Shown piece after piece: positions 32,575 to 38,863 of a stretch of DNA of 64,000 nucleotides. The stretch comes from Kofleriaceae bacterium (GTDB lineage: Bacteria; Myxococcota_A; Polyangia; Haliangiales; Haliangiaceae), in contig CAXNMK010000002.1 of assembly GCA_964203225.1 (NCBI GenBank), positions 417,664 to 481,663 on the forward strand, read 5' to 3'. Both the position numbers and the translations under genes were made by a program. Numbering within the stretch: the first letter of the stretch is position 1; each line of letters starts with the position of its first letter. Under the pieces are notes generated by a model. It ran no database searches. It was not told the DNA's origin and saw only the letters and a program-made list of their open reading frames with translations.

Positions 32575-33423
32575 TCAGTGGGTCGAGAACACGTCGACCA
32601 TGGTGCCGTCCTCGAGGGCGTACACCATCATCGCCGAGCTGCGATCCGTGCAGGAGTTGAAGCGGAAGCTCTCGCAGGTGCAGTTGGACGAGCCCACGGT
32701 GCACGAGGTGCCCTGCGAGTTCGTGCAGTTGATGCCGGTGTAGACCGCCGAACACGCGTCGGTGCTTCCGAGGCAGTCGGTCTCGAACTGGAGGCTGCCG
32801 CAGGTCGGGGTCACGTCGCAGGTGGCGATCGCGCCGCAGGTGCCGGTGTAGCAGCCGTCCTTGATCAGCGCGACCTCACCGGTGGCGCAGGTCGGGCGGA
32901 CGATGTTGCACGTCACCTCGGCGGCACAGGTGCCCTCGGGCGGGGTCGGCTCGCAGGTGCCGCGGACCTCGTCACAGAACCCGAAGCCCTGGGCCTGGGC
33001 CTCGGCGTCGGTGGTGCAGGCGCAGCTCGCCACGCAGGCGCCGGCCTCGCAGAACTCGCCGGCGGCGCAGTCCGCGTCGACCGCGCAGGTCGGGGGCGCG
33101 TCCGGAACGCACGAGGAGCGCTCGGTCTCGCAGGTGAAGCCGTCGGGGCAGTCGGAGGCCGCGTCGCAGAAGCCGGCCTCCTCGCAGATGCCGGCGTCGC
33201 TGCAGTAGCAGCCAGCGGCGCAGTCGGCGTTCGACTCACACTGGTACTGCGGCTCGCTCGGGCAGCCGGGGCCGGCCCACGTGCAGCTCTCGCCCTGACA
33301 GACGTAGTAGCCGTCGTCGGCGCAGTAGTTCCATCGGTCATCCGACTCGTTGCCGAAGTAGAGCGAGCAGCCGGCCAGGCCGGCCAGGGACAGGACGAGG
33401 AGGGAGGAGAACAGGTTCTTCAT
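32575..33423 (-). CDS. Cys-rich secreted lipoprotein (CxxC/CxC-rich, myxobacterial-type).
   Basis: The signal and lipobox read MKNLFSSLLVLSLAGLAGCS. More than 40 Cys residues occur in D/E-rich repeats. Confidence 0.65.
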   Translation of the reverse strand: MKNLFSSLLVLSLAGLAGCSLYFGNESDDRWNYCADDGYYVCQGESCTWAGPGCPSEPQYQCESNADCAAGCYCSDAGICEEAGFCDAASDCPDGFTCETERSSCVPDAPPTCAVDADCAAGEFCEAGACVASCACTTDAEAQAQGFGFCDEVRGTCEPTPPEGTCAAEVTCNIVRPTCATGEVALIKDGCYTGTCGAIATCDVTPTCGSLQFETDCLGSTDACSAVYTGINCTNSQGTSCTVGSSNCTCESFRFNSCTDRSSAMMVYALEDGTMVDVFSTH

Positions 33424-34431: not shown

Positions 34432-34548
34432 GAGCTGACCGAGCTGACCCAGTTGACCCAGTTGACCCAGTTGACCCAGTTGACCCAGTTGACCCAGTTG
34501 ACCCAGTTGACCCAGTTGACCCAGTTGACCCAGTTGACCCAGTTGACC
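34432..34548. repeat. Perfect 9-bp tandem repeat: two copies of GAGCTGACC followed by eleven copies of CAGTTGACC. It lies in the divergent promoter region between the acyltransferase gene and the next plus-strand gene.
   Basis: Seen directly in the sequence. It is followed by a C9 homopolymer at 34561-34569. Confidence 0.9.
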
Positions 34549-34678
34549 CAGTTGCTCGGGCCCCCCCCCACGGCGCAGATCCTACCTCCGTCGGCCGCCT
34601 CCCGTCGGCCGCCCCCGTCGGCCGCCCCCGGCGGCCGCCCCCGGCCGATCGGCGGCCCGCGTGGTAACATCGGCAACG

Positions 34679-35509: not shown

Positions 35510-36474
35510 GCTCGATCAGGCCCCGGCCGGTGATCCCTCCCCGCGTGCGGGCCGGGCAGACCATCGGCATCGTCGCGCCCGCGGGGCCGGTGCGGCCGGA
35601 GCGGCTGCAGGCGGGGCTGGCGCGGTTCGCGGCCCAGGGCGGGGATGCCTACCGGATCCGGCTCGCGCCGAGCCTGTCCGCGCCGCGCCCGGCGGGCCTG
35701 CCGAGCTACCTGGCCGCATCCGACGAGGTCCGGCTCGCCGAGCTGCAGGCGATGATCGATGATCCGGACGTCCGGGCGATCATCCTCGCGCGCGGCGGGT
35801 ACGGGATCATGCGCCTGCTGACCCACCTGGATCCCGCGCGCCTGCGGGCCGATCCCAAGCCGATCGTCGGGTTCTCGGACGCGACCGCGCTGCTCGCGTG
35901 GGCGTACGCGGCCGGCGTGCGCGGCATCCACGGCCCGGTGATCGCGCAGCTCGGCGATCTCGCGGACGCCGACATCGCGACGCTGCTCGCGCGGCTGACC
36001 TCGACGACGCCGCCCGGCGCGCGGCCGTGGGCGCTGACCTCGCACGGCACCGGCCGGCACGCGGGCCCGTTGATCGCCGCCAACCTGACGCTCGCGTCGA
36101 TGCTGACCGGCACACCGTGGCAGCTGCCCCTCGCGGGCTCGATCGCGCTGCTCGAGGAGGTCGGGGAGAAGCCCTACGAGCTCGATCGCTACCTGACCCA
36201 CCTCCTGCTCGCGGGCGCGCTCGCACAGCCGGCCGCCGTGGTGCTCGGCGATCTCACGCGCTGCGCCGATCCACGGCCCCCGACCGGGGAGCCCGATCCG
36301 CCGGACGCCGCCCTCGCGGTGCTACTCGAGCGGCTCGCCGCCGCCGGCCGCCCGGTCGCGGTGGGCGCGCCCGTCGGGCATGGCACCCGCAACGAGGCGG
36401 TGCCGTTCGGCGCCCACGCCGAGCTCGATCTCGATCGCGGCGAGCTCGTGATCACCGAGCCCGCGGTCGCCTGA
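35506..36474 (+). CDS. ldcA: LD-carboxypeptidase (muramoyltetrapeptide carboxypeptidase, S66 family).
   Basis: The nucleophile-elbow motif GFSDATAL is present, and the C-terminal catalytic region contains ...EEVGEKPYELDR.... The GTG start overlaps the previous stop. Confidence 0.85.
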   Translation: MSSIRPRPVIPPRVRAGQTIGIVAPAGPVRPERLQAGLARFAAQGGDAYRIRLAPSLSAPRPAGLPSYLAASDEVRLAELQAMIDDPDVRAIILARGGYGIMRLLTHLDPARLRADPKPIVGFSDATALLAWAYAAGVRGIHGPVIAQLGDLADADIATLLARLTSTTPPGARPWALTSHGTGRHAGPLIAANLTLASMLTGTPWQLPLAGSIALLEEVGEKPYELDRYLTHLLLAGALAQPAAVVLGDLTRCADPRPPTGEPDPPDAALAVLLERLAAAGRPVAVGAPVGHGTRNEAVPFGAHAELDLDRGELVITEPAVA

Positions 36475-36493
36475 GCGCCGCCGGGCGTCCCGC

Positions 36494-36778
36494 TCAGTGC
36501 ACCAGTACGTCGTCCTCGGGTCCGAGCTCGATGGCGCCGTGGCGCTCCTCGTAGCGCTCGAGGTTCTTCTGGAGCGCCTGCAGCAGCCGCTTGGTGTGCT
36601 TGGGCGAGGAGATCACCCGGGCGCGAACCTTCGCACGGCCGCTGCTCGGCTGGATGAACGCGAAGTCGAGCAAGAACTCGTTCTCCGTGTGGTTGAGCAG
36701 CACGAGGTTCGAGTAGACCCCCTGCGACACGTCATCGTCGATCTGGACCTGGAGCTTGGGGGGCGCGTCGTCGGACAT
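36494..36778 (-). CDS. DUF3467 family protein.
   Basis: The 94-aa product reads MSDDAPPKLQVQIDDDVSQGVYSNLVLLNHTENEFLLDFAFIQP..., which is a DUF3467-type sequence. Confidence 0.7.
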   Translation of the reverse strand: MSDDAPPKLQVQIDDDVSQGVYSNLVLLNHTENEFLLDFAFIQPSSGRAKVRARVISSPKHTKRLLQALQKNLERYEERHGAIELGPEDDVLVH

Positions 36779-36981
36779 CGGCTGGACCTTACGCGATCCC
36801 GGTGAACCGGGATCGGCGTGCGAACGATCGTCCGTCGGTGGCCACCCGAGTGGCCGCTGTGTGGTCGCGCGGTGACAGGATCCGCGGCCAGCTTGACACC
36901 TGTCGGATTGGTTGATGGTGGTGCGCGACGCCAAGCGCGCGAATCTACGTCGGTACCCCCGTGCCGAGCCCGATCGGGCGC

Positions 36982-36998
36982 CTGGCACCGATTCTGCT
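36982..36998 (+). promoter_or_regulatory. Candidate sigma-54 (-24/-12) promoter, cTGGCACcgattcTGCtt.
   Basis: A GG at 36984-85 and a GC at 36996-97 are separated by exactly 10 nt. The sequence matches TGGCAC-N5-TTGC at 9 of 10 conserved positions. Confidence 0.45.
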
Positions 36999-37007
36999 TT
37001 TGAACAT

Positions 37008-37238
37008 CTTGACCCAGCGCGGTGCGCGCGCCTCGGAGCGGCGAGCGCGGCGCGAAGGCCGATTCCTGACAACAGAAGCTTCCTGCGCGCGACGCAGAGC
37101 GAACGTTTCGACTCGGTGGATGACCGGCGGTCCCTCCCCCTCATGCCGCGGGTCTCCCCCACCACCTGAGGCAATCAGTAGCTCGGCGATTCAGCGCCCC
37201 GGCCCTCCTTGGCCCCCCTTGGAGGGCCTTTGTTTTTT
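37008..37238 (+). ncRNA. Candidate sigma-54-dependent small RNA, or a terminated leader, of about 230 nt and unassigned family.
   Basis: The candidate is bounded by the sigma-54 promoter on one side and a strong intrinsic terminator on the other. No credible ORF lies inside it. It sits in a 480-bp gap between divergent genes. Confidence 0.35.
37197..37238 (+). terminator. Rho-independent terminator.
   Basis: A GGCCCTCC / GGAGGGCC stem of 8 GC-rich bp is followed by TTTGTTTTTT. It lies 25 nt upstream of the ruvX start. Confidence 0.6.
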
Positions 37239-37262
37239 CGGCGTGCGCGATACTCACCTCCG

Positions 37263-37688
37263 GTGAGAGCACTCGGCCTCGATGTCGGCACCAAGACGAT
37301 CGGCCTCGCGCTCACGGACGAGGCCGAGGTCGCGGCGCATCCGCTCGGTGTGCTGCCACGGACCGGCAACGTCAGCGATGCGAGAGCCGTCGCCGCGCTG
37401 TGCGTCACCCACGGCGTGTCCGACGTCGTCGTGGGGATGCCGTTCGAGCTGTCGGGCCGGGTGGGCCACCGGGCCCGCCGCGTGCTCGAGCTGGTCACCA
37501 CCCTGCGCGCCGGGCTGCCTCCGGAGGTCGCGCTCCACGAGCACGACGAGCGGTTCTCGACCGCGGAGGCGCAGCGCATCCTGCTGGGCGCGGACGTGTC
37601 CCGGGCGCGCCGCAAGCAGGTGATCGACCAGCAGGCGGCCACCGTCATCCTCCAGGGGTGGCTCGACTGCCACCGCCGGGCGAAGTAA
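37263..37688 (+). CDS. ruvX: Holliday-junction resolvase-like protein RuvX/YqgF.
   Basis: The N-terminus VRALGLDVGTKTIGLALTDE is typical of YqgF, and the product is about 140 aa. Confidence 0.85.
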   Translation: MRALGLDVGTKTIGLALTDEAEVAAHPLGVLPRTGNVSDARAVAALCVTHGVSDVVVGMPFELSGRVGHRARRVLELVTTLRAGLPPEVALHEHDERFSTAEAQRILLGADVSRARRKQVIDQQAATVILQGWLDCHRRAK

Positions 37689-37699
37689 CGTCCCCTCCG

Positions 37700-38863
37700 A
37701 TGTCCCAGCGTTCGTTCCGGACTGCGCTCGCCGTCGTGCTCGGCACGCTCGCCCTGCTGGCCGGGCTGTCCGGGTACTTCGTGCACCGCGCCCTCAGCTA
37801 CCCCGGGGAGGCGCACGCGGGCACCGGCGCGGACATCGAGGTCGAGATCAAGACCGGCATGAGCTTCCCGTCGGTCGCCTCGACGCTCGCGCGCGCGGGC
37901 GTGATCGCCAAGCCGACGTGGTTCCGCCTGTTCGCGATGTGGGAGGGCAAGACCACGCAGGTCAAGCCGGGCAAGTACCTCCTCAAGAACAACGCCACCC
38001 CGCGCGAGGTGCTGGCGAACATCACCGAGGGCGTCAAGGAGGTGTCGATCCGCGTGACCCTGCCCGAGGGCCGCACCATGCTCGAGTTCTTCGAGGCGAT
38101 CGAGAAGGCGTGCCCCGACGGCGTGGCGCCGCCGTGCCCGTCGATCGCCAAGGCCACGGAGCTCGAGGCGCTCGCGCGCGACAAGGCGTTCCTCGGCAAG
38201 TTCGCGATCACCGCGGACACCGTCGAGGGTCACCTGTTCCCCGACACCTACCAGTTCCGCGTCGGCGAGAAGCCGACCGTCGTGCTGACTCGCCTGATCA
38301 CGCGCCACCAGGCGGTGTGGAACGAGCTGGCGGGCAAGCACCCGCGCGACACCGCGCGGCTCAAGGCGCTGCTCGGGTGGAGTGATCGCGACATCCTGAC
38401 GATGGCGTCGATCGTCGAGAAGGAGGCGGTCGAGCCATCCGAGCGGCCGCGCATCGCGCAGGTGTTCATCAACCGACTGTCGAAGTCGTTCAAGCCACGC
38501 AAGCTGCAGACCGATCCGACGATCCGCTACGGCTGCACCGTGCCCGCGCAGACGTCGGCCGCCTGCATCGCGTGGCACGAGCCGTGCCTGAAGGCCGGCA
38601 AGCCGAAGGGCTGCGATCGCCTGCACCGCGCGCAGCTCGACGACACCGACAACCCGTACAACACCTACGCCATCGAGGGCCTGCCGCCGGGCCCGATCTC
38701 GAACCCGGGCAAGGCGTCGATCGAGGCCACGCTGTCGCCGGACGGCAGCGACTACTTCTTCTTCGTCGCCACCTCGAAGGGCTCGCGCAGCCACGCGTTC
38801 GCGAAGACCGTGGGCGAGCACGAGCGCAACGTGCAGAAGTACGTCGGCACGCTCGGAGACTGA
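37700..38863 (+). CDS. mltG: Endolytic murein transglycosylase MltG (YceG-like).
   Basis: An N-terminal TM anchor is followed by a YceG domain (...VTLPEGRTMLEFFEAIEKA...HLFPDTYQF...NTYAIEGLPPGPISNP...). Confidence 0.9.
   Translation: MSQRSFRTALAVVLGTLALLAGLSGYFVHRALSYPGEAHAGTGADIEVEIKTGMSFPSVASTLARAGVIAKPTWFRLFAMWEGKTTQVKPGKYLLKNNATPREVLANITEGVKEVSIRVTLPEGRTMLEFFEAIEKACPDGVAPPCPSIAKATELEALARDKAFLGKFAITADTVEGHLFPDTYQFRVGEKPTVVLTRLITRHQAVWNELAGKHPRDTARLKALLGWSDRDILTMASIVEKEAVEPSERPRIAQVFINRLSKSFKPRKLQTDPTIRYGCTVPAQTSAACIAWHEPCLKAGKPKGCDRLHRAQLDDTDNPYNTYAIEGLPPGPISNPGKASIEATLSPDGSDYFFFVATSKGSRSHAFAKTVGEHERNVQKYVGTLGD

Follow-up and report, generated by a model that had tools for sequence, protein, structure and literature searches.

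Within a 64,000-nucleotide (nt) stretch of contig CAXNMK010000002.1 from a Kofleriaceae bacterium (the window, analysed at its full length), the gap between two divergent genes, DUF3467 and ruvX, appears to contain the gene for a previously undescribed regulatory RNA. The gap spans 484 nt (36779-37262) between the DUF3467 start codon on the minus strand (ATG, 36778) and that of ruvX on the plus strand (GTG, 37263), with mltG the next gene downstream of ruvX; all three were assigned by Pfam. Comparative sequence evidence gives us high confidence in a stand-alone non-coding RNA gene with a sigma-54-type promoter and a terminator at its end, and provides a solid basis for calling it a new family of a kind already known, that of sigma-54-controlled regulatory small RNAs (sRNAs) with C-rich loops. 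The fuller reading that we favour, with a probability of roughly 0.7, is an activator-dependent sigma-54 sRNA of about 230 nt, belonging to the Kofleriaceae clade, whose C-rich stretches would pair in trans with G-rich ribosome-binding regions. That the RNA is transcribed, that this requires sigma-54 and an activator, where its 5' end lies and how it acts are all predictions from sequence, and our confidence in the mode of action taken on its own is moderate to low. An earlier note on the window had proposed a sigma-54-type, non-coding transcript of about 230 nt that belonged to no known family; its features were all found at the coordinates it gave (a gap put at about 480 bp being the 484 nt measured here), and the computational tests that were run all agree with its proposal.

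The RNA gene and its predicted structure

A genome scan for relatives gave 80 loci (L001-L080), and the RNA itself is represented by 55 sequences, 54 from Kofleriaceae-clade genomes and one from a metagenome contig. The sigma-54 consensus is TGGCAC-N5-TTGC, with GG at -24, GC at -12 and a fixed 10-nt spacing between the two, and the window carries TGGCAC-CGATT-CTGC (TGGCACCGATTCTGC) on the plus strand at 36983-36997, with the GG-N10-GC spacing that the earlier note had described. That note had made much depend on the retention of this element in orthologous loci, and it is retained in 55 of 55: the T-G-G of its first half is present in all of them and the following C in 54, while the T-G of the second half is again present in all and its C in 52, the spacing being fixed and the spacer sequence variable. 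Even the most divergent members keep textbook elements (TTGGAACGCGTGTTGC in L054, TTGGCGCGCGTGTTGC in L056). It is this conservation, together with a covarying terminator in every locus, that raises the promoter above what chance would provide.

Transcription from sigma-54 promoters usually starts 12 nt downstream of the GC at -12, a rule by which the primary transcript would occupy 37009-37238 on the plus strand, about 230 nt, with an uncertainty of some 2 nt at the 5' end. Conservation follows the same limits: the stretch immediately after the -12 element is variable, conserved sequence, with the consensus GCAACC..., sets in some 12-15 nt beyond the GC, and it stops at the U-tract of the terminator. 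The interval from promoter to terminator has a mean column identity of 73% in an alignment of 51 sequences, rising to 81% over 55 sequences in the 3' 150-160 nt, and the 3' domain is thus more conserved than the flanking proteins would suggest, RuvX being only 55-74% identical. The agreement of these boundaries with the predicted start and the U-tract, and the covariation described below, support a discrete RNA of the predicted length.

The intrinsic terminator lies at 37201-37238 on the plus strand, where the earlier note had placed a strong one shortly before ruvX, and is identified both by its energy and by compensatory changes. An 8-bp GC stem (GGCCCUCC/GGAGGGCC) encloses a loop with CCCCCC at 37213-37218 and is followed by UUUGUUUUUU; the hairpin with its T-run (TTTGTTTTTT) folds at -21.3 kcal/mol (z = -4.06 against shuffles), and the T-run ends 24 nt upstream of the ruvX GTG. 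A T-run was found in all 55 sequences. The helix (helix 5 of the consensus) is 98% paired, with three pairs changed on both sides; one pair occurs as CG in 23 sequences, GC in 22 and AU in 2, another as UA in 37, CG in 7 and GC in 2. With a long U-tract and an 8-bp GC stem, termination is predicted to be efficient, and in the mechanism that we propose the transcript would end here, just ahead of ruvX.

Folded as a single sequence, neither strand of the interval did better than shuffled sequences (z = -0.65 to -1.66), and the structure became visible only in the alignment. The RNAalifold consensus places a core of nested helices, P2 to P5, at 37087-37197 on the plus strand: P2 (12 pairs) joins 37087-37098 with 37183-37197, P3 (3 pairs) 37105-37107 with 37173-37175, P4 (8 pairs) 37112-37119 with 37162-37170, and P5 (9 pairs, with an apical loop of 15-18 nt) 37122-37130 with 37146-37154. 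Scored together with seven terminator pairs, giving 39 pairs in all, and compared with controls in which the pairing partners were slid, this structure is paired in 97.7% of alignment cells (39.8-48.5% when slid), contains 117 double-change cells (at most 20 when slid) and reaches a covariation score of 0.246 (at most 0.064 when slid); on three of five structure measures, none of 500 shuffles attained the observed value. Compensation can be followed in individual helices, for example in P4, where GGUGG/CCACC is replaced by GAUAG/CUAUC, and the P5 stem is replaced as a whole in L054 and L056, while seven pairs of P2 are invariant. Conservation and covariation among relatives, which the earlier note had suggested as a check, are thus both present.

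Upstream of this core lie a variable 5' hairpin domain (37010-37065, plus strand), recognised from folds of individual sequences, and a short, A-rich linker, CUGACAACAGAAGC..., with the conserved motif UGACAAC-AAA (37066-37086, plus strand; columns 100-130 of alignment A1), which is unpaired in the consensus fold. The apical loop of the 5' hairpin reads CYAAGGAAUAG in most relatives, the window having a different, GC-rich hairpin, and the pairing at the base of the hairpin shows a modest gain over permuted sequences (a mean of 4.87 of 6 pairs, against 4.53 +/- 0.08 in 500 permutations).

C-rich loops and a proposed mode of action

Three C-rich stretches are left single-stranded by this structure. 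The apical loop of P5, UCCCUCCCCCUCAUG (37131-37145, plus strand), contains an anti-Shine-Dalgarno-like CCUCC and is a candidate seed; it reads CCCUCCCCCUCAU or UUCCCUCCCCC(C)UCAUCCC and is near-invariant in the 55 sequences, the divergent L054 and L056 among them. A second stretch, UCCCCCA (UCUCCCCCA), forms a bulge between P5 and P4 at 37155-37161 on the plus strand, as seen in the consensus structure and the alignment, and a third is the near-invariant run of six or seven C in the terminator loop. The exposure of C-runs that marks the class of C-rich-loop sRNAs is therefore present at all three places, each of them unpaired and conserved. An alternative pairing of UCAUCC in the P5 loop with GGAUGA at the P4/P5 junction was considered and rejected, six sequences having GGUUGA there with an unchanged loop.

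We hypothesize that these anti-Shine-Dalgarno-like stretches would pair in trans with G-rich ribosome-binding regions of messenger RNAs (mRNAs), which would be translationally repressed once the activator of the RNA gene is switched on. Action in trans is favoured because the C-rich-loop sRNAs that have been studied, sX13 and the 'cuckoo' RNAs, act in this way; other sRNAs with C-rich loops are RsaE/RoxS, 6C and RepG. The RNA described here belongs to none of the catalogued families: the covariance-model search that the earlier note had recommended found no credible family in Rfam 15, whether in the whole window at gathering thresholds, in 36000-38000 at E <= 10, or in eight homologous loci, typical and divergent, at E <= 1, and so bears out that note's impression. 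The 6S RNA, transfer-messenger RNA (tmRNA), RNase P RNA and signal recognition particle (SRP) RNA were rejected as candidates, having no Rfam match and an architecture that does not fit. A search of the literature found no described RNA of this kind for Kofleriaceae or Haliangium.

The nearest contact in Rfam is sX13 (RF02232), a sub-threshold match over the C-rich part (14.7 bits against a gathering threshold of 50, E = 9.6). In Xanthomonas, the C-rich loops of sX13 and G-rich motifs near the start codons of its targets are both needed for repression, which is independent of Hfq (PMC3771888). The window RNA resembles sX13 in being a structured sRNA with unpaired C-runs from a high-GC host with a weak consensus ribosome-binding site, but there is no homology between the two; it is twice as long, has a nested multi-helix core in place of the three adjacent hairpins of sX13 and, unlike sX13, has a sigma-54 promoter. 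The 'cuckoo' RNAs of Alphaproteobacteria (CcsR / alpha-r14) carry a CCUCCUCCC loop motif that has been read as pairing with G-rich motifs of ribosome-binding sites (PMC4615179). They share with the window RNA an anti-Shine-Dalgarno-like C/U motif that is repeated in several unpaired loops on variable stems, but come from another taxon and consist of two to four adjacent similar hairpins; the motif in the window family is CCCUCCCCC(U)CAU, UCUCCCCCA or C6-7 rather than CCUCCUCCC, and there is no Rfam match.

The same gene boundaries, promoter and terminator would also serve for an RNA that binds or sequesters a protein, its C-rich stretches and ultra-conserved internal loops titrating an RNA-binding protein, S1 or the 30S subunit in the way that CsrB/RsmZ and CrcZ titrate their partners. 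Constraint on the 3' domain goes beyond the usual seed and stems, with 81% identity, many invariant unpaired positions (UUCGACUCGGUGG, CUGAGGCAACAAGUAG) and the seven invariant pairs of P2, and a similar motif is presented three times while no specific mRNA target has emerged. Yet no likely partner protein is associated with the locus, the C-rich-loop RNAs that have been studied work by pairing, and a repeated motif also suits pairing with mRNAs at multiple sites; we regard sequestration as rather unlikely but as a serious rival, more probable than any of the explanations that follow. It is also tempting to speculate that the RNA acts as a global translational switch, an abundant anti-Shine-Dalgarno mimic made on a sigma-54/activator signal that would mask Shine-Dalgarno-led mRNAs, or engage a ribosomal or RNA-binding partner, and so shift translation towards the leaderless mRNAs that appear widespread in the clade. 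The strong 3' conservation and the threefold C-rich motif are compatible with this idea, which we consider a long shot.

Several observations weigh against an activator-dependent sRNA that pairs in trans. The -24/-12 string is by itself not rare in a window of 70% GC: it has three matches where 0.62 are expected, and 6 of 100 shuffles reach three. A search for the GAFTGA motif turned up no activator gene, either within the window or within the 4-kb flanks of the 80 loci. The 5' domain of the window is unlike that of its relatives, and the family hidden Markov model (HMM) matches the window only from position 52 on. A scan of the 64-kb window for targets of the P5 loop returned 660 sites at or below -19 kcal/mol and is non-specific at 70% GC, and there is no G-rich complement at the start regions of mltG, ruvX or DUF3467. 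These three neighbours moreover look leaderless (see below), which may mean that the pool of Shine-Dalgarno-led targets in the clade is small. The conservation of the 3' domain beyond what seed pairing needs would also fit a protein-binding RNA. Finally, all members of the family come from uncultured genomes.

Independence from ruvX and the control region

The position of the RNA makes it natural to ask whether it is a gene at all, or instead a cis-acting leader in which the sigma-54 promoter serves ruvX-mltG and the terminator is a regulated stop within that mRNA, as the earlier note had allowed when it hedged towards an attenuated ruvX-mltG leader. The RNA and ruvX are immediate neighbours with a common orientation, the RNA coming first, in 51 of 55 loci, and the ruvX start usually follows the terminator by only 8-48 nt, so that a conventional promoter with its leader would hardly fit between them. 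However, L054 and L056 have the whole unit, from promoter to terminator, pointing away from ruvX, and L021 has the RNA in its usual place followed by divergent DUF3467-ruvX-mltG, with ruvX not downstream of the RNA; even among the 51 loci, the gap from terminator to ruvX is 74-316 nt in ten. The terminator arms vary (GGCCCUCC, GGCCCUGC, GCGCUGCA) without a matching change elsewhere in the RNA, no antiterminator is evident on reading alignment A2 (no formal test of alternative structures was made), and the long U-tract and 8-bp GC stem would make for efficient termination. The leader is disfavoured because these three genomes break the arrangement that it requires, upstream of ruvX and in its orientation, and because ruvX appears to own a promoter; we consider it very unlikely and set the hedge aside, although some read-through into ruvX may occur.

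The signal for a separate ruvX promoter is a -10-like box, GATACT, at 37249-37254 on the plus strand, 8 nt before the GTG at 37263 and outside the RNA; it is probably a promoter of leaderless type, and would mark the limit of the RNA gene. Sequence resembling a Shine-Dalgarno site precedes ruvX in just 6 of 51 loci, whereas 13 of 51 by a strict definition and 29 of 51 by a loose one have TAnnnT at 4-11 nt ahead of the ruvX start codon, against backgrounds of 2% and 10%. The same arrangement, almost never accompanied by a Shine-Dalgarno sequence, is considerably more frequent at DUF3467 (45 of 51 loci) and mltG (36 of 46). This suggests that the transcripts of DUF3467, mltG and, probably, ruvX are leaderless, each with its own promoter, and with such a signal in place ruvX need not rely on read-through from the RNA gene.

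In the window, the DUF3467 box is TAAGGT (as the reverse complement of 36786-36791), 7 nt ahead of the ATG at 36778, and the mltG box is TAACGT (37686-37691), 8 nt ahead of the ATG at 37700 and overlapping the ruvX stop codon. A perfect 20-nt palindrome, GATCCCGGTGAACCGGGATC, lies at 36795-36814, 17-36 nt upstream of the DUF3467 start, at the position expected for the -35 region of that gene, where relatives carry TTGAAYCGCGATCA; it also produced a chance-level match to the L31 leader in the Rfam search (E = 3.1). Between the RNA and ruvX, L007, L011, L022, L051 and L052 have one or two extra terminator-like hairpins with TTTATTTTTT; L011 has three copies, at a spacing of about 58 nt.

The stretch between DUF3467 and the promoter contains two more conserved blocks. 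Block U1 (36839-36883, not assigned to a strand) is conserved across loci and is a candidate enhancer, that is, an activator-binding region; in the window it holds the palindromic hexamers TGGCCA (36839-36844) and TGGCCG (36851-36856), 12 bp apart, followed by GGTGACAGGATCC (36871-36883), and in the family form it has two TGGCCA hexamers (TGGCCA-N6-TGGCCA) followed by GGTGACAGG. The pattern TGGCCA-N6-TGGCCR has seven matches in the window where 0.75 are expected. Block U2 (about 36931-36962 in the window, likewise without strand) lies between U1 and the promoter, with the consensus TAAC..GTTTCCTCGTCG..GAGATCCCGA (or ..GATCCCGA), and is weakly preserved in the window itself; it is a candidate site for DNA bending or for a second regulator. 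From GGTGACAG in U1 to the GG at -24 the distance is 113 in the window, and across loci it falls into the classes 80-81 (8 loci), 92-93 (2), 102-103 (9), 113-116 (29 and the window) and 124 (2), while for U2 the corresponding distances are 41-42 (12 loci), 52-53 (31), 64 (2) and 74 (1). Both series advance in steps of about 10.5-11 bp, or whole helical turns, whereas U1 is free to lie at anything from 40 to more than 233 nt from the start of DUF3467 across loci. It is this phasing to the -24 element, combined with freedom relative to DUF3467, that makes the architecture enhancer-like, with the geometry expected for the activator site, and perhaps also a bending site, of a sigma-54 promoter at which proteins would bind. 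Our hypothesis is that transcription would start about 12 nt downstream of the -24/-12 element and require an enhancer-binding activator at the phased U1 (TGGCCA-N6-TGGCCA ... GGTGACAGG), possibly aided by DNA bending at U2. As no gene with a GAFTGA motif lies nearby, the activator would have to be encoded elsewhere.

The recurrence of the -24/-12 string in the window and the absence of an adjacent activator gene might be taken to mean that it is not a sigma-54 promoter, the RNA being made from a promoter of another type and the string serving, for instance, as a regulator-binding site. Against this stands the pattern itself, since TGGC...TGC around a spacer of fixed length and free sequence, shared by all 55 loci, is precisely what sigma-54 promoters show, while no sigma-70-like site was found in 36400-37600, the upstream blocks are helically phased, and a lipoprotein gene elsewhere in the window is preceded by a second conserved sigma-54-like element; the objection strikes us as highly improbable.

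That second element, TGGCACGACCCATGCT, lies at 33484-33470 on the minus strand, 48 nt before a gene for a Cys-rich lipoprotein (MKNLFSSLLVLSLAGLAGC..., ATG at 33422, minus strand), and is kept, with upstream blocks of its own (GGGCATTTTTGTCAG ... GTTCGATCCC), in at least 11 loci. The window has three exact copies of GTGWCAGGNWYC where 0.16 would be expected, two on the minus strand (33627-33616 and 33575-33564) and one on the plus strand (36872-36883), and each sits 93-145 nt upstream of one or other intergenic sigma-54-like promoter, at a distance that fits the helical series of the sRNA. Other species retain just the proximal copy, near -93 of the lipoprotein promoter, in the reduced form TGTCAG/TGTCCG. 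It is possible that the sRNA and lipoprotein promoters share one activator. The (C)UGACAAC of the RNA linker (37066-37072; GTTGTCAG on the opposite DNA strand) also resembles the GTGWCAG of the upstream block, probably by coincidence.

Several known sRNAs are under sigma-54 control, among them Qrr1-5 (with the activator LuxO), GlmY (GlrR), CrcZ (CbrB) and NrsZ (NtrC). Like the window RNA they combine a -24/-12 promoter with upstream activator sites, as the output of a signalling pathway, but they are unrelated to it in sequence or structure, there being no Rfam match. Closer in taxonomy is Pxr of Myxococcus xanthus, to which the earlier note had compared the locus. Pxr folds into three stem-loops, and its sigma-54 promoter, itself a prediction, is preceded by an enhancer-binding region; its gene directly follows pxrR, which encodes an NtrC-like regulator, and is found solely in the suborder Cystobacterineae (PMC5684412). 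The comparison holds for the type of promoter, both being myxobacterial sRNAs with a sigma-54-type promoter and an upstream enhancer region, and fails beyond it: the window RNA is about 230 nt long, occurs in Kofleriaceae, has no activator gene nearby and matches no Rfam family in sequence or structure (no direct comparison with a Pxr sequence was made, nor was Rfam 15 checked for a Pxr model).

That the interval instead encodes a small protein has next to no probability, since, although an open reading frame (ORF) of 80-101 codons runs across the region in the window, the longest ORFs of 51 sequences start at various points and use all three frames over the same conserved nucleotides, insertions and deletions of 1-2 nt fall in a C-run within the most conserved stretch, and there is neither a Shine-Dalgarno sequence nor a conserved start, which upholds the earlier note's remark that the interval has no credible one.

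Distribution and significance

The DUF3467 protein assigns the window to Kofleriaceae (Myxococcota), and the RNA follows a subset of the relatives found in the genome scan. Searches by HMM (nhmmer) and covariance model detected a single copy in the window and likewise in each of L001-L056, except L049, which has none; in two loci the copy is cut by a contig end. One further copy is on the metagenome contig L112, the only one among 120 metagenome stretches listed in which the RNA was present, so that metagenomes contribute at least one; the pattern used there, TCGACTCGRTRGWTG-N7-GG, is too degenerate and gave chance matches. By HMM and covariance model the RNA is absent from L057-L080, including the Polyangia loci. 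DUF3467 and ruvX are divergent in about 50 of the 80 loci, with a gap of 420-690 nt; in the Polyangia loci L063, L065 and L067 the gap is just 53-55 nt, and in L062, L064, L066 and L068 it contains a small ORF instead of the RNA. Because distant relatives carry other content at this position, the RNA gene and its control region look like a clade-specific insertion. The small ORF, from more distant Kofleriaceae, begins MGKSSKK... and has a C-terminal ...LDHWLRAE....

Elsewhere in the window, a 9-bp tandem repeat, TGACCCAGT, occupies 34436-34554 (13.2 copies, 98% identity), upstream of or inside the start of the gene that precedes an LD-carboxypeptidase gene, and a 13-bp repeat of 4.2 copies is present at 34588-34643.

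Myxobacteria carry dozens of sigma-54 activators, and Pxr is, to our knowledge, the only sigma-54-driven sRNA studied in them so far. The RNA described here would represent a second, unrelated family of sigma-54-type sRNAs in myxobacteria, and one for which the full promoter anatomy can be proposed, from the core element and phased upstream blocks to the terminator. No new principle is involved; if the mechanism is as expected, a known class of regulators is extended. The family is represented in 55 genomes at species level, from a clade of uncultured soil and water bacteria for which a covariance model is ready for use in annotation, and the DNA motif TGGCCA-N6-TGGCCA ... GTGACAGG could be used to seek the regulon of the putative activator. 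It also provides a testable hypothesis on regulation by C-rich loops in a clade where leaderless genes appear to be frequent.

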